A stretch of DNA of 64,000 nucleotides. Source: an uncultured Gemmatimonadota bacterium (lineage in GTDB: Bacteria > JAAXHH01). Positions 56,336 to 63,518 of the stretch are shown one piece after another; position 1 is the first letter of the stretch, and every line of letters begins with the position of its first letter. The position numbers were made by a program, and so were the translations under genes. The stretch spans positions 672,001 through 736,000 of the forward strand of contig OX638340.1 of NCBI GenBank assembly GCA_951812955.1, read 5' to 3'. The notes beneath the pieces were generated by a model. It did not search any database. It had not been told where the DNA came from and worked only from the letters and a program-made list of their open reading frames with translations.

Positions 56336-57451
56336 CTATAAGCAAACTTCGTGAATCATGCGTGAGTAGATGTCCACTGCTTCGTAAAGCTGCGGAATTT
56401 CCACGTATTCGCCCACCGTGTGGGCACGTTCGATGCTGCCTGGGCCCAGGACTACCATATCCAGCTGCTCTCTGAAATGGGGAGCGTCCGTCCCGTAGGG
56501 CACGGTTTCCGGCCGCTTACCGCCTGTGACTTCGGACGCCAGTTGCACGATGGGACTCGAAGGATCGGCGTAGAAGGGACGGGAAAGGGTGCTCGAAACC
56601 TCGAACCCGTAACTTTCGGCCCGAGAAACCAGTTCTTTCACCAGTACCTCGCTGTGATCGTCCGGCATCGTGCGGAAACAGACGTGACAGGTCGATCGCG
56701 CGGCGGAGACATTCTGCTTCGTGTCGTAGTCGGTGATTACCATGTTGAACCCGTTCGAAGGCGGATTGAACTCCGTGTTCCGGAACCGTTCATCCTCTTT
56801 TATCTGCTCCGACAGTTTGGCCATTTCGGCAAGGAAAGGGGCAATCTTGAAATTGGCGGATTCCCCGAGACCTGTGCTGGTGTGGGCCGCCCGGCCGTGG
56901 GCCGTCACCACGACGTGCGCCGCACCCTTGTGGGCGTACACCGGCGTCAGGCTTGTCGGTTCGGCCACCACGCCGAAGTCCGGTCGAAGGGTGCTCATGA
57001 TACCGGATTCCGTGGCTACCTGGTGCGCTCCGCCGCCACCCACCTCCTCATCGGCCGTCGCCACCACGATCAGCGGCTTCTTCAGACGGTCCGCATCCAC
57101 CTTTGCGGCGGCGATCATGGTGCATGCCAGGGGACCCTTCATGTCGCAGCTGCCCCGGCCCAGCAGCCGGTCGCCGTCGACCACGCCGTGATAGGCATCC
57201 CAGTCCTGTTCCTGCCCCGGGACGGTGTCCGTGTGGGACAGGAAGGCCAGTCCGCCTTCGCCTTCACCTTTGCGTCCGACGAGACTGACTTTCAGTTCGC
57301 CGTTTTCATCTTCGTAGGACAACCGTTCCACTTCAAGCCCGCATGCCTTCATCCGGTCTTCGACCAAATCGGATATGGCGGCGTTGCTCCACCGGCTGAC
57401 GGACTTCACATCCACGAACTCCTTCGTCATTTCAACTGGATCCAGACCCAC
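56336..57451 (-). CDS. M20 family metallopeptidase (ArgE/DapE-type deacylase)
   Basis: ...LSHTDTVPG...GRGSCDMKG...ATADEEVGG... metal-binding motifs. Confidence 0.8.
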   Translation of the reverse strand: MGLDPVEMTKEFVDVKSVSRWSNAAISDLVEDRMKACGLEVERLSYEDENGELKVSLVGRKGEGEGGLAFLSHTDTVPGQEQDWDAYHGVVDGDRLLGRGSCDMKGPLACTMIAAAKVDADRLKKPLIVVATADEEVGGGGAHQVATESGIMSTLRPDFGVVAEPTSLTPVYAHKGAAHVVVTAHGRAAHTSTGLGESANFKIAPFLAEMAKLSEQIKEDERFRNTEFNPPSNGFNMVITDYDTKQNVSAARSTCHVCFRTMPDDHSEVLVKELVSRAESYGFEVSSTLSRPFYADPSSPIVQLASEVTGGKRPETVPYGTDAPHFREQLDMVVLGPGSIERAHTVGEYVEIPQLYEAVDIYSRMIHEVCL

Positions 57452-57499: not shown

Positions 57500-58489
57500 T
57501 CAGTCCGTCAGCCAGCTCGACATTTCGTCCCGCAATTCCGAGTCCGTCCTCAGGGCGAGGGCTTCGAATGCGTTATCGAGGTGGCCGGTATGCCGGGCGC
57601 CGACGATGACCGACGTGACATCCGGATGCCCCATTGTCCAGGCCATGGCCAGGCGCACCATGGGGAGTCCCCTGGAGTCCGAGAGGGCGCGCAGCCTCTC
57701 CACGTTTCGGAAATTCCGGTCGTTGAAGTAGATGTCCGCGTGACCGGGTATAACGTCGAATCGCGAGCCCCTGGGAAAGTCGTTCCGATCCGGCGTGTAT
57801 TTGCCCGTAAGGAAACCGGCGGCGAGCGGACTGTAGGACGTAACACCTACTTCCTCGCGCCGGCACAGGGGGAAGAGTTCGTCCTGCGCGCCGGGATCGG
57901 CCAGGTTGTAGGGAGGCTGGATCACCTCGAAACGGGCATAACCATGCCGCGCGGAGGCATCCAGGGCTTCCTGGAGTTGTGAAGCATTGAAATTGCTGCA
58001 CCCCACGGTTTTGATTCTGCCGGCTGTCACCGCCTGGTCCAGCACGGCCAGGCTTTCATCGATGGGAACGGATTCGTCGGGGGAATGCAGTTCGTAGATG
58101 TCAATGCAGTCCACCTGCAGCCGGTCGAGACTGACCTGAAGCGCCCGGGCTATGTTCTCCGGCTTGTTTCCGCTGCTCACCTTGGAACAGATCACCACTT
58201 CGTCCCTGCAACCCCGCTCCTTCATCCAATTACCAATGATGATTTCGGAAGAACCCATGACGTCCGAGGTCTCACGCACGTCATCGACCTTCAACACGTC
58301 ACGCCGGTATGTACGGGCGTTGCCGCCCCCGTACGCCTCCGCCGTGTCGAGCCAGTCGAGGCCGTTTTCGACGGCATAATCCAGAATGGCTACCGAATTC
58401 TCCTCGTCTATCTCACGGCCAAAGGTCACGCAACCCAGGCCGATGAAGCTGATCGACATATCGGTACGGCCGAGTTTTCGGTGTTCCAT
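57500..58489 (-). CDS. Aldo/keto reductase
   Basis: MEHRKLGRTDMSISFIGLGCVTFG...; ATG 58489 is chosen over the upstream extension. Confidence 0.8.
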   Translation of the reverse strand: MEHRKLGRTDMSISFIGLGCVTFGREIDEENSVAILDYAVENGLDWLDTAEAYGGGNARTYRRDVLKVDDVRETSDVMGSSEIIIGNWMKERGCRDEVVICSKVSSGNKPENIARALQVSLDRLQVDCIDIYELHSPDESVPIDESLAVLDQAVTAGRIKTVGCSNFNASQLQEALDASARHGYARFEVIQPPYNLADPGAQDELFPLCRREEVGVTSYSPLAAGFLTGKYTPDRNDFPRGSRFDVIPGHADIYFNDRNFRNVERLRALSDSRGLPMVRLAMAWTMGHPDVTSVIVGARHTGHLDNAFEALALRTDSELRDEMSSWLTD

Positions 58490-58650
58490 GCACACTCCCC
58501 GGTTGTATCCAACGGATACGATGGACGTCCTTGGCAAATCGCATCATGCAGCCGGACCGGCTGTGGTGTAAATGTACATCCGGCAGGATCAGGTGGGCAA
58601 GAGATGTTTGTCGTGGAAACCGGTAGGAAAGGGAGACTGAAGGCCGGCGG

Positions 58651-58785
58651 CCCGGACAGTCAGGCCCAAACGGCTGCGAATGACGATCCAGGTGGTCCGG
58701 GCTGTCAGGCCCAAACGGCTGCGAATGACGATCCAGGTGGTCCGGGCTGTCAGGCCCAAACGGCTGCGGCTGGCGATCCAGGCGG
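58651..58785. repeat. 45-bp tandem repeat x3 in the intergenic region downstream of the HtrA-like gene and upstream of the AKR gene
   Basis: ccgggctgtcaggcccaaacggctgcgaatgacgatccaggtggt repeated; the third copy is degenerate. Confidence 0.8.
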
Positions 58786-58813
58786 TTTTAGACAGTCCAG
58801 GCAGTCCAGCAGA

Positions 58814-60118
58814 TTAGAATCCATTATCCCCGGGCAGGACCGCCGACCGCTGACCGATACGCCGCATGCGTTCATCCAGCAGCCTTTTGAGCTGATTCAA
58901 CTTGAGCCGGTGGGCCGCAAGTTCCATTTCGTGTTCCAGGATCATTTGCTGGATTAGATTGGGATCTTCACTGGGCAGGGGATCGTCCGCATCATCTTCG
59001 ACGAGTAAAGGCGAGGCGGGGGCATTCAGCAGTTTCGGCTGAGGCGCGAGAACCGTGTTCACCGTCTTTTCCGTATCTCCCCGCAGGTACGTGATTTCGA
59101 TCCGGGTGCCCACCGGTAGCGCGGTCACGAATTCTGCAAGGACAATGGGATGGTTCATCGGGACACCGTTTACAGCCTGCAGAATATCGCCCTTGCGCAG
59201 ACCGATCTTCATGGCCGGGCTATCGGGATATACATCAGAAACGACCATACCTTCTCCGGCGCCCAGCATGATATTGCGGTCGCCGCCGACATTGATGCTG
59301 TCCCAGATTTTCTCCACGTACACACCCAGCCAGCTCCGGCGGATCTCACCGTATTCGATGAGCTGTCTGGCGAAGGTCTTTACGCGGTTGATGGGAATGA
59401 CCGAAATCAATCCTCCGTCATTTCCTCCACTAAAGTGCTCCGACAGGGAGGTCTGTGCCCCCTGGGAATCGGCCACGAGACCGAGCAGGCGACCGTTCGT
59501 TGAAAACACGGCGCCGCCGGTGTAACCTCCGCCGACCACTGCGCTGACCTGCAACATGACATCTTCTTCCCTTACCCCGTTCACGATTCCCGTCGTCATC
59601 GAGGATGGAAATCCATGGGCGTTATTCAGCACAAGAACCCAGGATCCGGGACGGACGCCATCGGAATCACCGATGCGCGCGGTATGGACCGACACGCTGT
59701 CAACACGGATCACGGCGATATCGGAAAGCCTGTCCACCCCGACGAGTTCGCCGAGGCGGTACTGGCCATCCTGGAAATTCACCAGGATATCGTGGGCATG
59801 ATCCACGACGCCGGCCGTCGTGATGATGAAACCGTCTCTGTGGAGGACAACACCGGTCCCAATGGATCGTTCCCAGTCGGTGAAAGTCTGCCCGTTCACC
59901 GTATTGATGAATTTCCGCTGTACGATCACGCTGGCGATCGTCGGTTCCACGCGTTCAACGAGTCCGACGATCTCTTGTTCCAGGTTATGCAGGTACGGGG
60001 GGGCCTGCGCGTAAGCCCTGGAAGCGGCATAAAGGTGCCCCATACAGCACAGCAGCGCGGCACATATCAGGGGCCGAAAGTGTTCGGTTCCGAGTCGTAT
60101 GGGTTGAGAACCAAGCAT
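58814..60118 (-). CDS. HtrA/DegP-family protein (trypsin-like domain plus PDZ plus C-terminal coiled-coil-like tail) with Thr in place of the catalytic Ser
   Basis: His (VVDHAHDIL) and Asp (LSDIAVIRV) of the triad are present. The oxyanion/nucleophile block reads GGGYTGGAVF (DegP consensus GNSGGAL). Codons verified as ggt tac acc ggc ggc. Confidence 0.75.
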   Translation of the reverse strand: MLGSQPIRLGTEHFRPLICAALLCCMGHLYAASRAYAQAPPYLHNLEQEIVGLVERVEPTIASVIVQRKFINTVNGQTFTDWERSIGTGVVLHRDGFIITTAGVVDHAHDILVNFQDGQYRLGELVGVDRLSDIAVIRVDSVSVHTARIGDSDGVRPGSWVLVLNNAHGFPSSMTTGIVNGVREEDVMLQVSAVVGGGYTGGAVFSTNGRLLGLVADSQGAQTSLSEHFSGGNDGGLISVIPINRVKTFARQLIEYGEIRRSWLGVYVEKIWDSINVGGDRNIMLGAGEGMVVSDVYPDSPAMKIGLRKGDILQAVNGVPMNHPIVLAEFVTALPVGTRIEITYLRGDTEKTVNTVLAPQPKLLNAPASPLLVEDDADDPLPSEDPNLIQQMILEHEMELAAHRLKLNQLKRLLDERMRRIGQRSAVLPGDNGF

Positions 60119-60124
60119 GGTTGG

Positions 60125-61057
60125 TCAGAACGAGATACGGACGCGTCTGAGAGGGGTGGTCGGACCTGACGACCCTTGCGTGTCAGGCGAACCAGGCAAA
60201 CCATATGCTCGCTGTGTTGCGCGAAATTCGGTGGTTCCGACGGGTTGCAGACGTTCCTCCGTCGTCGGTTGATCTATATTGCCGCTGGTATCCAGGCCCC
60301 GGCCGAAGGACTCGCTGAACAGGGATGGATCGAGGCGCATGCCCGTACCTGCCGACACGAATCGGATCCCATGGGTTTTTGGTTCCATGGTCCTGACGGT
60401 CATGATGCCCGGTCTGTTGCCGGTGATTCCGGATGCGTTCAAAGAGAGACTGGATGCAGAAGAAGTGGGGAGAATGGATGCCTGTTCCTGGCTCAGTGCC
60501 GGCTTTACCGCCATGTACGGCGCGAGTTCTCTTTCTAGGGGAAAGGGCGAAATCGGATCGGGGGGTGCAAGTTCGGGTTCAACGGGCGTCGGCAGGGAAA
60601 AGGCCATGGGAGGGGACGGAGACGATTCGGACCGCCCCGTAGGCGCGGACAGTTCCCAGAATCCGCCGATCACGGTTATGGTAAGGATCAGGCTGGTCGC
60701 AAATACCAGTTGAACGGGACGCTGCCGGCTGTGTTCGCCCAGTTCGGCAAAAGCCCCCGATACGCGCCTCCACCAGGAAGCGGCGTACAGTTCACGGGCA
60801 ATTTCCAGGTTCAGCAGATTACCGAGTCGATGATCGAATCCTGGTTGAGGGGATACGGCGGGCAGACTCTTCACGGCCTGTATGGAGCTTTCCATGTCAT
60901 CAATCTTGAGCCGGCACCGTGGACATCCGTTCAGGTGAAACCGTAGTTCGTCTTCGGTTGCCTTCGACAACTGACCGTCCAGGTAGTCGGACATCTTCCG
61001 CTCGTAACCACTACAGTTCAAAATATCCTTCCTCCTCAAAGTATCTCTACCTGCCAC
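60125..61057 (-). CDS. Anti-sigma factor, zf-HC2 type, single-pass
   Basis: ...LNGCPRCRLKIDDMES... zinc-finger, one TM (LVFATSLILTITVIGGFW) and a Pro/Ser-rich periplasmic tail. Its start at 61057 overlaps the ECF gene; an alternative ATG lies at 60994. Confidence 0.65.
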   Translation of the reverse strand: MAGRDTLRRKDILNCSGYERKMSDYLDGQLSKATEDELRFHLNGCPRCRLKIDDMESSIQAVKSLPAVSPQPGFDHRLGNLLNLEIARELYAASWWRRVSGAFAELGEHSRQRPVQLVFATSLILTITVIGGFWELSAPTGRSESSPSPPMAFSLPTPVEPELAPPDPISPFPLERELAPYMAVKPALSQEQASILPTSSASSLSLNASGITGNRPGIMTVRTMEPKTHGIRFVSAGTGMRLDPSLFSESFGRGLDTSGNIDQPTTEERLQPVGTTEFRATQRAYGLPGSPDTQGSSGPTTPLRRVRISF

Positions 61058-61698
61058 TGCCTGAGCATTTCCTGCAGTCTCAGCCGGCCCCGGTTGACCC
61101 GCGACTTGACGGTTCCGGTCGGACAGTGCAGTATCTCGCCGATCTGTTCGTAAGACAGTTCTTCAATATCGCGCAGCACGATCACGGATTTGTATTTCTC
61201 CGGCAGTTGATCGATCGCGTGCTGGATGGCCCTGCCCAGTTCATTCTGCTCCAGGTGATCGCCAGGCCCCGCGTTCTTGTCCGGCAGATCGATTCCTTCC
61301 CTGGTGCTGTTCTCGTGGGGCGACGCGTTCAGGGAGAAGAACTGGCGGCGTTTTCGCTTGCGCAACTCGCTCCGGGCGAGATTGAGCGCGATGGTATAAA
61401 TCCAGGTGGAAAGATTGGAGATCGCCTTGTAGTTGTGGCGGTTCCGGTAGACCCTGAGAAACGTCTCCTGCACCAGGTCTTCCGCGCACTCCATATTGTG
61501 GACCATGCGATAAATGCAATTATACAACCTGGTACGGTATCTTCCGACGATAACTTCGAAAGCGCGCGCATCCTCCCGTTGAACCCGGATGAAAAGCGCT
61601 TCATCCGACAGGGTCAATTCGTCGAGCACCCCTGATTCGATATCGGAGACCTGTACCGCGTTTATATAGGTGTTGTCAGCCATTTTCTTCTCTCCCAT
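61036..61698 (-). CDS. ECF sigma factor (RpoE-like)
   Basis: Region 2 (...AEDLVQETFLRVYRN...) and region 4 (...LSYEQIGEILHCPTGTVKSRVNRGRLRL...). Confidence 0.85.
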   Translation of the reverse strand: MGEKKMADNTYINAVQVSDIESGVLDELTLSDEALFIRVQREDARAFEVIVGRYRTRLYNCIYRMVHNMECAEDLVQETFLRVYRNRHNYKAISNLSTWIYTIALNLARSELRKRKRRQFFSLNASPHENSTREGIDLPDKNAGPGDHLEQNELGRAIQHAIDQLPEKYKSVIVLRDIEELSYEQIGEILHCPTGTVKSRVNRGRLRLQEMLRQWQVEIL

Positions 61699-61802
61699 AC
61701 CACGTTATACGTTGCGCGGAGGGATGGGTTTCAGAAAAAGTGGCCGGTATCCATCACAACCGGATTGATTCCGGCTTGCCGGCCCGCAATGGTCAATTAG
61801 GA

Positions 61803-61831
61803 ATATAGAATACTGCCGGCCGGATGTCAAT
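61803..61831 (-). promoter_or_regulatory. Sigma70-like promoter candidate (TTGACA-17-TATATT on the minus strand) upstream of the ECF sigma operon
   Basis: Reverse complement of 61803-61831 = TTGACAtccggccggcagtattcTATATT. Confidence 0.35.
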
Positions 61832-61838
61832 CGGACCG

Positions 61839-63518
61839 TCATGCCCGCACCTCGCTCACATCGTGTATGGTATACTGATAGCCCTGCTCAGTGAGGAAGA
61901 GCTGACGGTTCACGGCGTAGTCCTGGTCCAGGGTGTTTCGCGTGATGAGCGAGTAGAATATGGCGGCCGAGCCGTCAGCCTTGGGACGGAGGATCCGGCC
62001 CAGACGCTGGGCTTCCTCCTGGCGAGACCCGAAAGTGCCCGATATCTGGATCGCCACGTTGGCGTCCGGCAGGTCGATGGCGAAATTGGCGACTTTGGAC
62101 ACCACGAGGCGTTTGAGTTCACCGTTTCTGAACCGGTTATACAGATCGAGTCGGGCCTGCAGGGGCGTGCTGCCGGTGATCAGGGGGAAATCGAACAACG
62201 CGGCGATCTGCTTGAGCTGTCTCACGTATAGACCGATTATCAGAACCTGGTCCGTCGGATGTTGATCCAGCAGGTTGCGGATGATCTCCGTCTTCCGGCT
62301 GTTTTCCGAGGCGATCCTGAACTTCTCCCTGCGATTGGCCACGGCGTAGGACATGCGCCGTGCTTCGGGCAGGTCTATCCGGATTTCACGGCAGTACGCC
62401 TCCGCGATCCAACCCTGCCGCTCCAGCAGTTTCCAAGGCATGTCGTACCTTCGGGGACCAATGAGGCTGAAGACGTCGTCCTCGCGGCCGTCTTCCCGAA
62501 CCAGCGTAGCGGTCAGCCCGAGGCGCCTTCGGGCCTGGATCTCGGCCGTGAAACGAAAAACCGGGGCCGGCAGCAAGTGAACCTCGTCATAGATGATGAG
62601 GCCCCAGCCCTTCTGGTCGAATAGACCGAAATGCTTGAATTCGTCTCCCCTGCTTTTCCTGTAAGTCAGAATCTGGTATGTGGCCAGTGTTACGGGCCGA
62701 ATCTGTTTCGTTTCACCGGAATACTCACCGATCATATCCTCGGAAAGCGAAGTCTTCCCGATCAGTTCCTCCCGCCACTGCCGCAGTGCCACCGTGTTGG
62801 CCGTAAGTACGAGGGTGTGACATTTCAGGGCGGCCATGGCACCGAGGGCCACGATCGTTTTCCCCGCGCCGCAGGGGAGCACGACGACTCCGTTGCCGCC
62901 CTGCGGTTCGCCGTTCATGTGGAACGCGCCAACGGCGTCCACCTGGTAATCCCTCATGCTGAAGGATTTACGGTCGCCGGGCGTGGTGCGCAAATCGATT
63001 GCCAACGGGGCGCCTTCTACGTAACCCGCCAGATCTTCCACCGGAAATCCGACTTTTATCAGCGCCTGCTTGATGTGGCCGCGGAATCGATCACCCACCC
63101 GGACCCGTCGCTCGTCCAGCGGTTGTGCGAGAAACTGCTTGACCGAGGGCAGCCCGGAAACTTCCGCGATAAGCGCCGCATCGTCGGACTCGAGTATAAG
63201 CTTCCCGTCCTCCTTGCGCAGCCTGAGCTGGCCGTACCGGGCTATGAAATCGACGATCTCGCGGCGGATGTTCTGTGGAATCTCGTACTTGCTCAGGCCT
63301 TCGAGCGACTCGAGCACGCCGTCCGCTTCCATGCCCGCCGAGGCGGCGTTCCACAGTGACAGGGGGCTCAGCCTGTATACGTGGATATGCTCAGGGGACT
63401 TTTCCAGTTCCGCGAATCGCGCCAGCGCATCCCGAGCGTCCTCGTAGCGTGGATGGTCGACTTCGACGAGGATGGTCCGGTCGCTCTGCACGATCAATGG
63501 GTTCTTCAGGTCAGGCAA
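61839..63518 (-). CDS. XPB/Ssl2-like superfamily-2 DNA helicase (bacterial ERCC3 homolog)
   Basis: Walker A ...LPCGAGKT..., DEVH box (...IIYDEVHLLPA...), motif VI (...QEEAQRLGRILR...), and an N-terminal XPB-type damage-recognition-like domain. Confidence 0.85.
   Translation of the reverse strand: MPDLKNPLIVQSDRTILVEVDHPRYEDARDALARFAELEKSPEHIHVYRLSPLSLWNAASAGMEADGVLESLEGLSKYEIPQNIRREIVDFIARYGQLRLRKEDGKLILESDDAALIAEVSGLPSVKQFLAQPLDERRVRVGDRFRGHIKQALIKVGFPVEDLAGYVEGAPLAIDLRTTPGDRKSFSMRDYQVDAVGAFHMNGEPQGGNGVVVLPCGAGKTIVALGAMAALKCHTLVLTANTVALRQWREELIGKTSLSEDMIGEYSGETKQIRPVTLATYQILTYRKSRGDEFKHFGLFDQKGWGLIIYDEVHLLPAPVFRFTAEIQARRRLGLTATLVREDGREDDVFSLIGPRRYDMPWKLLERQGWIAEAYCREIRIDLPEARRMSYAVANRREKFRIASENSRKTEIIRNLLDQHPTDQVLIIGLYVRQLKQIAALFDFPLITGSTPLQARLDLYNRFRNGELKRLVVSKVANFAIDLPDANVAIQISGTFGSRQEEAQRLGRILRPKADGSAAIFYSLITRNTLDQDYAVNRQLFLTEQGYQYTIHDVSEVRA

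Follow-up and report, generated by a model that had tools for sequence, protein, structure and literature searches.

An HtrA-like pseudoprotease encoded with an ECF sigma factor and its anti-sigma factor in Gemmatimonadota is a candidate receptor of the anti-sigma tail

Results

A sigma factor, an anti-sigma factor and an HtrA-like protein share one operon

The genes described here lie in an uncultured Gemmatimonadota bacterium (assembly GCA_951812955.1), on a stretch of 64,000 nucleotides spanning positions 672,001 to 736,000 of contig OX638340.1, hereafter called the window. Three co-directional open reading frames (ORFs) on the minus strand fill its positions 58814-61698 and encode a sigma factor of the extracytoplasmic function (ECF) type, an anti-sigma factor bound to the membrane and an HtrA-like protein with a protease domain and a PDZ domain. 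This trio had been proposed in an initial annotation made from the letters of the sequence, and its domains are borne out by Pfam. The feature that sets the HtrA-like protein apart is the absence of the catalytic histidine, which is missing from every member of its family.

The first gene product carries Sigma70_r2 (1e-17) and Sigma70_r4_2 (5.6e-18) domains with no r3 domain between them, and scores 112.5 bits against the NCBIfam sigma70-ECF superfamily model (TIGR02937, cutoff 42.9). Its best named NCBIfam matches are SigW and RpoE, each under the equivalog cutoff. By domains, size and superfamily score it is an ECF (group 4) sigma factor. The gene directly downstream encodes a class I zf-HC2 anti-sigma factor of the zinc-binding anti-sigma (ZAS) type (Pfam zf-HC2 2.8e-10, 40.5 bits against a cutoff of 22.2), which is a single-pass protein: there is one hydrophobic segment, at residues 113-137, followed by about 170 residues past the membrane.

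The third protein contains Trypsin_2 at residues 87-214 (2.6e-20) and a single PDZ domain at residues 273-355, matched by PDZ_6, PDZ_2 and PDZ. Its best match by sequence in the Protein Data Bank (phmmer) is a DegP-like protease (E about 1.9e-36 to 1e-35), and the top Foldseek matches of its AlphaFold2 model (mean predicted local distance difference test score, pLDDT, 72.8) are DegP, DegQ, AlgW, MucD and DegS, all at probability 1.00. On this model the protein has the HtrA fold, with a chymotrypsin-like protease domain and a PDZ domain. Every NCBIfam HtrA model nevertheless stays under its cutoff, with 177.3 against 416.2 bits for Do (TIGR02037) and 117.4 against 422.95 bits for DegS (TIGR02038). 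An A-x-A/Q-like signal peptide cleavage site is common to the aligned orthologs. In the PDZ domain, R261, S262, W263, L264 and G265 are invariant across the family alignment. The coiled-coil-like C-terminal extension mentioned in the initial annotation is there as well, as a helix at residues 386-422 after the PDZ domain that is both predicted and conserved in the family as LIQQMIxEHExELxxHRLxLxQLKxL; distant relatives without the histidine also end in similar charged helices. This helix may serve as an oligomerisation element.

The catalytic histidine is missing throughout the family

The initial annotation described an HtrA protease in which a threonine had replaced the catalytic serine while histidine and aspartate were kept. 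The threonine is real: the block VVGGGYTGGAVF is present and its acc codon encodes Thr200, which aligns with the serine (or the engineered alanine) of the GNSGG motif in DegP. The histidine is not kept, since the His of TNNHVV in DegP aligns, in a HMMER alignment to DegP structures, with Gly103 of ITTAGVV. It was probably His107 or His109 of the nearby VVDHAHD that had been counted as catalytic; considered as a shifted catalytic histidine, either residue lies off the catalytic position and is unconserved beyond the closest shell of relatives. As for the aspartate, Asp133 is present in the window protein, but its column varies among orthologs.

A database search delimited a family of 56 clusters (E from 3e-265 to 4e-73, identity from 93% to 39%) with a sharp boundary, the next matches being canonical HtrAs that begin at 4e-33. 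Across the 56 clusters the histidine column holds G, S, A, D or N and never H, and the same is true of the genomic loci L001-L027 described below. In the aspartate column, D (41 clusters) is followed by N (10), G (4) and S (1). Threonine itself is not conserved, as the nucleophile column is divided among S (28), T (20), A (6), I (1) and P (1). Nine canonical HtrAs aligned alongside the family are all H/D/S.

Serine in close orthologs had been named beforehand as a sign that the threonine was a point error. Serine does occur in many orthologs, but the Ser-bearing ones lack the histidine too, so the presence of serine is no indicator of activity. The closest relatives (P0001, P0002, L001 and L002, at 93-95% identity) share both Gly103 and Thr200, and with the histidine missing clade-wide a sequencing error does not account for the unusual triad. 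In these alignments the serine-to-threonine change is a variable, secondary feature, and the missing histidine is the decisive one.

Searching the protease domains of 58 representatives without the histidine revealed no substitute conserved His or Lys. With no catalytic histidine and with unconstrained aspartate and nucleophile positions, peptide-bond hydrolysis is not to be expected. Two options had been raised for the threonine protein, and they fared differently: a PDZ-containing pseudoprotease is supported by the lack of the histidine across the whole family, the window protein included, whereas a rare Thr-nucleophile S1 protease would have neither a general base nor a replacement for it, and its nucleophile is Ala, Ile or Pro in some orthologs. 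As the catalytic feature and the curated thresholds both fail, the protein should be filed as an HtrA-like pseudoprotease (pseudo-HtrA) and not as a Do/DegP/DegS protease.

The gene has not decayed. Pairwise dN/dS of the window gene against ten orthologs is 0.16-0.24, between the values of the sigma gene (0.05-0.09) and the anti-sigma gene (0.26-0.41), and many family-specific positions are invariant. These substitution patterns indicate that the pseudo-HtrA gene is under purifying selection and still functional.

A clade without the histidine is tied to sigma and anti-sigma genes

A genome scan with one genome per species returned 39 loci, whose records are metagenome-assembled genomes (MAGs) that carry the labels Gemmatimonadetes, Latescibacterota, Zixibacteria or just 'bacterium'. 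Judging by isolate names like APA_bin, IRC1_bin and Plut, the sources may be sponges or corals. Wherever a locus includes enough upstream DNA, at identities from 95% to 30%, the genes follow the order sigma, anti-sigma, pseudo-HtrA. This covers L001-L023 and L025 (the short L024 and L028 do not reach the upstream genes) and extends to the outliers L026 and L027, which at 30% identity keep the trio and have N/N/S in the triad columns. The proteins of L029-L038 are canonical H/D/S HtrAs with no adjoining sigma or anti-sigma gene. Loci L001-L021 also retain the genes that flank the operon in the window, an XPB helicase upstream and an aldo/keto reductase downstream.

An exhaustive profile search over 1.84 billion cluster representatives extended the comparison. 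Among its best 150 matches, classified by hmmalign, 80 are canonical H/D/S proteins and 58 lack the histidine. The latter typically have LTT-x-x where canonical members have TN-x-H (the window protein has ITTAG); N (20), D (17) and G (14) prevail in their aspartate column, and in their serine column S (40) outnumbers T (6), A (4) and I (3). Their scaffold glycines and PDZ loop are as conserved as in active HtrAs, with L264 and G265 retained in 88-98%, matching the canonical proteins. In a rough neighbour-joining tree, 49 of these 58 representatives fall into one clade of 51. Judged by this tree, the HtrAs without the histidine in Gemmatimonadota, Zixibacteria and Latescibacterota MAGs are mostly monophyletic.

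The genomic context was looked up for eight distant non-canonical representatives. Six without the histidine (P0170, P0173, P0176, P0183, P0187 and P0197) have a zf-HC2 anti-sigma gene directly upstream (6/6), preceded by an ECF sigma gene wherever the contig reaches. For P0204 the upstream ORF of 256 aa has no Pfam record, and it contains an H-x3-C-x2-C motif and a transmembrane segment; for P0217, with the triad H/Q/S, the contig is too short to judge. A canonical control with two PDZ domains (P0193) has no sigma or anti-sigma neighbours within the 536 nt upstream. Seeding a metagenome scan with LVEx[VIT]KPSLV, an N-terminal motif from a 6-sequence alignment, added 51 loci (L051-L101), all from one sister branch, with the triads SNS (37), GNS (2) and SNT (1). 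An upstream ORF is present in 46 of them and carries H-x3-C-x2-C in 43 of the 46, and among the 62 loci L040-L101 there are 48 with an upstream sigma homolog. In a few distant loci other genes border the module: two M16 peptidase genes upstream and tatA/B downstream in L044/L045, and a TamB-like gene upstream in L042. These envelope-biogenesis and protease neighbours may hint at a regulon theme.

We define here a clade of HtrA-like proteins that lack the histidine and are linked to a sigma/anti-sigma pair, a context confirmed in L001-L027, L040-L046, L049-L050 and L051-L101. Its marks are an HtrA fold with one PDZ domain, LTT-x-x where TN-x-H would stand, and a gene that directly follows that of a zf-HC2 anti-sigma factor with an aromatic end. 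The window protein belongs to it, with one PDZ domain, ITTAG at the histidine site and a partner ending in RISF-COOH. It is very probable that catalysis is lost in this protein and that its function is tied to the sigma/anti-sigma pair. Source annotations name clade members 'serine protease Do' or 'trypsin-like peptidase', and since the whole clade is without the catalytic histidine, these labels are systematically misleading.

The anti-sigma factor ends in a conserved aromatic tail

The AlphaFold2 model of the anti-sigma factor consists of a helical cytoplasmic N-terminal domain and a transmembrane helix, with no secondary structure beyond it (pLDDT below 50); the periplasmic part is predicted to be disordered. 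In the alignment this region is divergent except for the islands EPELAP, GIMTVRTMEP and GMRLDPSLF and the extreme C-terminus, where the candidate ligand peptide of the window's anti-sigma factor reads ...GPTTPLRRVRISF-COOH. The tail has the form P-[IL]-[RK]-R-[VI]-R-I-S-F-COOH in L001-L021 and ends in TRVSF or SRVAF in L022, L023 and L025. An R[IV]SF end is found in 45 of 46 clusters of anti-sigma homologs, and the lone exception looks truncated.

Sister-branch anti-sigma factors end in Tyr or Phe in 44 of 46 cases (37 of 39 distinct tails) and contain a [YF]-x-[LMI]-P-[VA]-V-S motif whose proline keeps a distance of exactly 13 residues from the C-terminus in 35 of the 39 distinct tails. The tail residues between the motifs vary freely, which argues for constraint on the tail end and on the spacing. 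Two loci, L022 and L023, combine a Y-x-L-P motif (positions -16 to -13) with the RV[SA]F end. Other distant anti-sigma factors end in Y or F in 6 of 7 cases. In the outliers L026 and L027 the aromatic residue sits at position -2, ahead of a C-terminal Pro, a poor fit to a classical PDZ ligand.

Promoters, gene starts and neighbouring genes

The features of the operon are collected in Table 1. The initial annotation had offered a promoter candidate for the ECF sigma factor at 61803-61831, which turns out to be a sigma70-type site and is kept in the alignment of L001-L019. Closer to the sigma gene lies an ECF-type motif, TGAAAC-N16-CGTAT, which is the sole match in the 64 kb window (0.04 expected). 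Loci L001-L019 keep T-rich-TGAAACC...CGTATAAC upstream of sigma, and L020, L022, L023 and L025 have the form GGAAC/TGAAAC...CGT[GC]TAAC. From its sequence and conservation this motif is likely the autoregulatory promoter of the operon, and the promoter at 61733-61707 would be recognised by the operon's own sigma factor. In L005, L008 and L013 the stretch from the XPB stop to the sigma promoter contains extra short tandem repeats (GCATGACGG / GACGTGACGGTC-like units), inserted a little upstream of the TTGACA box; the window has none of them.

Table 1 Features of the sigma/anti-sigma/pseudo-HtrA operon in the window
Feature	Position	Strand	Basis or remark
ECF sigma gene	61036..61698	minus	Sigma70_r2 + Sigma70_r4_2; 220 aa as longest ORF
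zf-HC2 membrane anti-sigma gene	60125..61057	minus	Pfam zf-HC2; longest ORF 310 aa
HtrA-fold pseudoprotease gene	58814..60118	minus	434 aa; Trypsin_2 + one PDZ
Sigma70-type promoter-like site TTGACA-N17-TATATT	61802..61830	minus	11/12 consensus matches; just downstream of XPB helicase stop
ECF-type (SigW/RpoE-like) motif TGAAAC-N16-CGTAT	61707..61733	minus	~25-50 nt upstream of sigma start
H-x3-C-x2-C zinc motif (H41, C45, C48, 310-aa numbering)	60914..60937	minus	FHLNGCPRC; invariant in alignments
Anti-sigma transmembrane helix, residues 115-137	60647..60715	minus	Kyte-Doolittle 19-mer maximum 1.98; conserved as SRQRPVQLVFATSLILTI
Conserved anti-sigma C-terminus PLRRVRISF-COOH	60128..60154	minus	candidate PDZ ligand
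Predicted signal peptide, residues 1-37 (...SRAYA/QAPP)	60008..60118	minus	hydrophobic residues 14-35; site judged by eye
Gly103 codon, catalytic-His position	59810..59812	minus	HMMER alignment to DegP structures
Asp133 codon, catalytic-Asp position	59720..59722	minus	retained in window protein
Thr200 codon acc, nucleophile position	59519..59521	minus	sequence reading + DegP alignment
PDZ domain, ~residues 257-356, carboxylate-binding loop RRSWLGV	59051..59350	minus	Pfam; loop intact
Conserved C-terminal amphipathic helix, residues 386-422	58853..58963	minus	AlphaFold2, pLDDT ~80

The longest-ORF starts of the sigma and anti-sigma genes are probably wrong, to judge by the sequence around them. 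A likelier start for sigma is ATG 61683, with GGGAGAG just 5' of the ATG, and for the anti-sigma factor TTG 61021 after AGGAGG, giving 298 aa; gene callers begin its homologs likewise, at MNCSGYE. With these starts the apparent 22-nt overlap of the two genes disappears. A gap of 6 nt lies between the anti-sigma stop and the pseudo-HtrA start, which share one reading frame (TGA CCA ACC ATG; 60119-60127); most loci among L001-L021 have exactly this gap, and no obvious Shine-Dalgarno sequence was seen before the pseudo-HtrA start. This arrangement suggests that translation of the two genes may be coupled by termination-reinitiation. Read-through of the stop codon between them would yield a fusion of both proteins.

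A consensus scan found no intrinsic terminator after the operon. Its two weak sites (59650 and 60225) both lie inside coding sequence, and their number is not above shuffle expectation. Between the pseudo-HtrA stop and the aldo/keto reductase start there are three tandem 45-bp units (58652-58786; 93% match, Tandem Repeats Finder score 228), each holding a small GGGC...GCCC hairpin. The repeat may be a repetitive extragenic palindromic (REP)-like element or, given that no intrinsic terminator was found, a terminator substitute.

Immediately upstream of the operon is an XPB/ERCC3-type helicase (61839-63518, minus strand, 559 aa; Helicase_C_3, ResIII and ERCC3_RAD25_C). Its synteny holds throughout L001-L023, at 73-99% identity. 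XPB homologs are not common in bacteria and have been little studied there. The downstream neighbours, both on the minus strand, are an M20-family peptidase/deacylase (56336-57451) and an aldo/keto reductase (57500-58537). The reductase is syntenic in L001-L021 and shows no sign of operon membership, being set off by a 276-nt gap with the tandem repeats.

Discussion

A non-cleaving receptor for the anti-sigma tail

We regard the observation as solid: there is a clade of dead HtrA-like proteins with strict linkage to sigma and anti-sigma genes, and the anti-sigma tail is substrate-like. From it we infer a mechanism, for organisms that are uncultured. The best explanation, to which we give a probability of about one half, is that the pseudoprotease serves as a non-cleaving receptor of the anti-sigma tail in an autoregulated sigma operon. 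The narrower claim, that the protein acts by binding this tail, is put forward from the sequences as quite possible, at slightly less than even odds.

The signal peptide of pseudo-HtrA and the N-in, single-transmembrane topology of the anti-sigma factor would place both partners in the periplasm. PDZ domains of HtrA proteins bind C-terminal aromatic peptides, that of AlgW recognising WVF-type ends and that of DegS reading the YxF-type ends of unassembled outer-membrane proteins (PMC8103513). By analogy with the DegS and AlgW domains, the PDZ domain of pseudo-HtrA may bind the aromatic C-terminus of the anti-sigma factor. Pseudo-HtrA would then be a substrate-trap receptor, its PDZ domain holding the RISF-COOH end of the disordered tail while the upstream tail motifs lie along the dead active-site cleft, so that the two-site recognition of an ancestral HtrA would be re-used for holding rather than cutting. 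The bound tail would be shielded from periplasmic proteases, an RseB-like or co-anti-sigma role. Envelope stress would expose C-terminal Phe/Tyr peptides of unassembled outer-membrane proteins; these could displace the tail, the anti-sigma factor would be degraded and the sigma factor released. Released sigma would re-induce all three genes from TGAAAC-N16-CGTAT, which would close a negative feedback loop and restore the lock. We infer which way the regulation runs and what the signal is, and we favour a protector or sensor role over other roles.

A more specific version is offered tentatively, as it has well under an even chance of being right. It holds that an ancestral site-1 HtrA protease turned into a non-cleaving receptor whose two-point grip, with PDZ pocket and active-site cleft about 13 residues apart, clamps its own anti-sigma tail, and that bacteria of the Fibrobacterota-Chlorobiota-Bacteroidota (FCB) group, here Gemmatimonadota, Zixibacteria and Latescibacterota, might widely use it to signal by competitive displacement with stress-exposed C-terminal peptides and not by regulated cleavage. 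DegP recognises two degrons: PDZ1 anchors a hydrophobic or aromatic residue at the C-terminus, and an aliphatic position about a dozen residues upstream goes into the active site. According to Kim, Grant and Sauer (2011) the active-site and PDZ1 degrons are reportedly linked. The sister-branch tails, with Y-x-L-P-V-V-S and its Pro 13 residues before the terminal Y/F, resemble this arrangement, although the analogy in spacing is a conjecture of ours, and the two-degron geometry that gives cleavage in DegP would here, with a dead site, give stable binding. A DegP 'molecular ruler' is mentioned in PMC3169616.

Several points weigh against this interpretation. The tail and locus counts are drawn from phylogenetically related sequences and are not independent events. 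The tail motif is not uniform across branches: the arrangement of YxLP 13 residues before an aromatic end is absent from the window's own clade, which has PLRRVRISF, and the anti-sigma factors of L026 and L027 (CP070758.1, Gemmatimonadota bin29) end in ...TSFSP or ...VTFSP. A conserved aromatic end could be read instead by another PDZ protease, of the Prc/Ctp type or a canonical HtrA, and the data do not constrain the direction, protector or activator, in which pseudo-HtrA would act. Many relatives without the histidine retain GNSGG with its serine, a possible hint of residual or unconventional chemistry there. Finally, a GAAC-N15-18-CGT motif upstream of sigma was found in the distant branches (L040-L101) only in L044/L045, so autoregulation is supported for the window's own clade only.

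Relation to known envelope-stress systems

The initial annotation had likened the gene order to rpoE-rseA/degS and algU-mucA...mucD, and the analogy is supported. As in the E. coli RpoE-RseA-RseB system with RseP and the site-1 HtrA protease DegS, an ECF sigma factor would be held by a single-pass anti-sigma factor whose periplasmic part is under the control of a one-PDZ HtrA-family protein; the candidate promoter is of the same GAAC...CGT-like type, and in E. coli a periplasmic partner, RseB, protects the anti-sigma factor, as pseudo-HtrA might do here. Unlike DegS, the HtrA-family protein here is dead, with no His and variable Asp and nucleophile, and is encoded in the operon, whereas degS is unlinked. 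Unlike RseA, the anti-sigma factor is of the zinc-finger (ZAS) type and has a disordered periplasmic part with its own aromatic C-terminus. The module contains no RseB homolog, and the proposed protector has an unrelated fold: RseB and MucB are LolA-like, whereas pseudo-HtrA has only Trypsin_2 and PDZ, so any RseB-like role is by analogy.

In the algU-mucA-mucB-mucC-mucD operon of P. aeruginosa and in rpoE-rseA-mucD of Xanthomonas, the downstream HtrA-family gene negatively modulates sigma activity. The order sigma, anti-sigma, downstream HtrA-family gene is the same here, and MucD (8k2y) is among the top structural matches. MucD, however, is an active DegP-type protease with two PDZ domains that degrades activating peptides, whereas the window protein has one PDZ domain and no catalytic His; native MucA is not known to have an aromatic PDZ-ligand tail. 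The sigE-rseA-htrA(Rv1223)-tatB genes of M. tuberculosis likewise encode an ECF sigma factor, a ZAS-type anti-sigma factor and an HtrA-family protein in that order, and the structure of M. tuberculosis HtrA (7w4s) is among the structural matches of the window protein. That HtrA is an essential active protease with an intact triad, and M. tuberculosis RseA is cytoplasmic, with no known transmembrane segment or periplasmic tail.

The HtrA-family pseudoproteases of magnetotactic bacteria, MamO and the LimO type, also have Thr at the nucleophile position, are maintained by selection and have a non-catalytic role, and pseudo-HtrAs have arisen repeatedly (PMC4794232). Unlike the window protein, MamO keeps His and Asp, is fused to TauE, binds metal through a di-His site, has no PDZ-dependent role and takes part in biomineralisation. 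The two proteins are only weakly similar (15 bits and E = 0.0057 with NCBIfam MamO, whose cutoff is 800), the window protein has no TauE domain, and the contexts differ, MamO being encoded in a magnetosome island and the window protein in an ECF operon. MamO and its relatives, which differ in architecture, context and function, were the only bacterial HtrA pseudoproteases described in the literature searched. A dead HtrA linked to an ECF operon is described neither in the full-text literature searched nor in the main text of the 2021 ECF re-classification, its supplementary group descriptions aside. The module is a sigmaE-type variant with a dead HtrA-like protein beside the anti-sigma factor, widespread and so far unrecognised.

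Alternative roles for the pseudoprotease

It is rather unlikely that the protein is only an effector of the regulon, a protease-dead holdase or chaperone like DegP S210A that is co-transcribed with the pair and makes no specific contact with the anti-sigma factor. Chaperone activity of protease-dead DegP is established, the operon position mirrors that of mucD and of M. tuberculosis htrA downstream of sigE-rseA, the HtrA fold and the PDZ domain are kept, and the C-terminal helix could build oligomers. DegP-type chaperoning cages, however, need contacts between PDZ1 and PDZ2, and the window protein has one PDZ domain only. An effector role would also leave unexplained the tail, which is the most conserved part of the disordered periplasmic region and resembles an HtrA PDZ ligand, and the near-absolute adjacency of the His-less HtrA and zf-HC2 genes across deep divergence, which the canonical neighbours do not show.

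Also unlikely is a role as adaptor or activator, in which the dead subunit would capture the tail, hand it to an active protease of the HtrA or Prc type whose gene lies elsewhere, and thereby promote site-1 cleavage, either through mixed oligomers or by activating the protease as MamO does MamE. The evidence of the tail and the PDZ domain fits such a role as well as it fits a protector, and the data overall fit nearly as well. HtrAs are obligate trimers and the scaffold residues of the trimer interface are kept; canonical H/D/S HtrAs occur in Gemmatimonadota (for example P0110); and MamO is needed for MamE-dependent proteolysis independently of its own triad (PMC4794232). Yet no G[NDH]SGG[PA] motif occurs in any frame of the window, which thus encodes no active HtrA, none adjoins the module in the related loci examined, and an activator that sigma co-induces with its target would amount to positive feedback with no obvious off-switch.

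An unconventional active protease, with Thr200 (Ser in orthologs) served by a non-canonical base such as His107, His109 or a residue of the substrate or a partner, is very improbable. The GG of the oxyanion loop and the Ser/Thr are kept in most members, and His107 is conserved within the closest shell of about 55% identity. Against this, the nucleophile column holds Ala, Ile or Pro in 8 of the 56 clusters, and members of the wider clade have Gly, Arg, Asp or Asn at the corresponding position; the aspartate column is unconstrained as well, no conserved His or Lys takes over, and the protein misses every NCBIfam HtrA cutoff by a wide margin. Errors of sequencing or assembly can be dismissed, as can a pseudogene in decay, with identical Gly103 and Thr200 in independent assemblies at 93-95% identity, an intact ORF in more than 100 assemblies and dN/dS of about 0.2.

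Implications

If the receptor reading is right, the module would show clearly, in bacteria, how a protease can become a pseudoenzyme, retain the geometry by which it recognised its substrate and come to regulate that former substrate. The pseudoenzyme would be a lock, gated by ligands, on a sigma/anti-sigma switch. Beside DegS-type cleavage and RseB-type protection, ECF anti-sigma factors would thus have a third mode of control. The module is compact, with three genes, one promoter and a 9-residue tail, which makes it directly testable in a heterologous host, and it could serve synthetic biology as an orthogonal, peptide-gated ECF switch. It would also offer a way into envelope-stress signalling, experimentally unexplored so far, in uncultured phyla associated with sponges and sediments.

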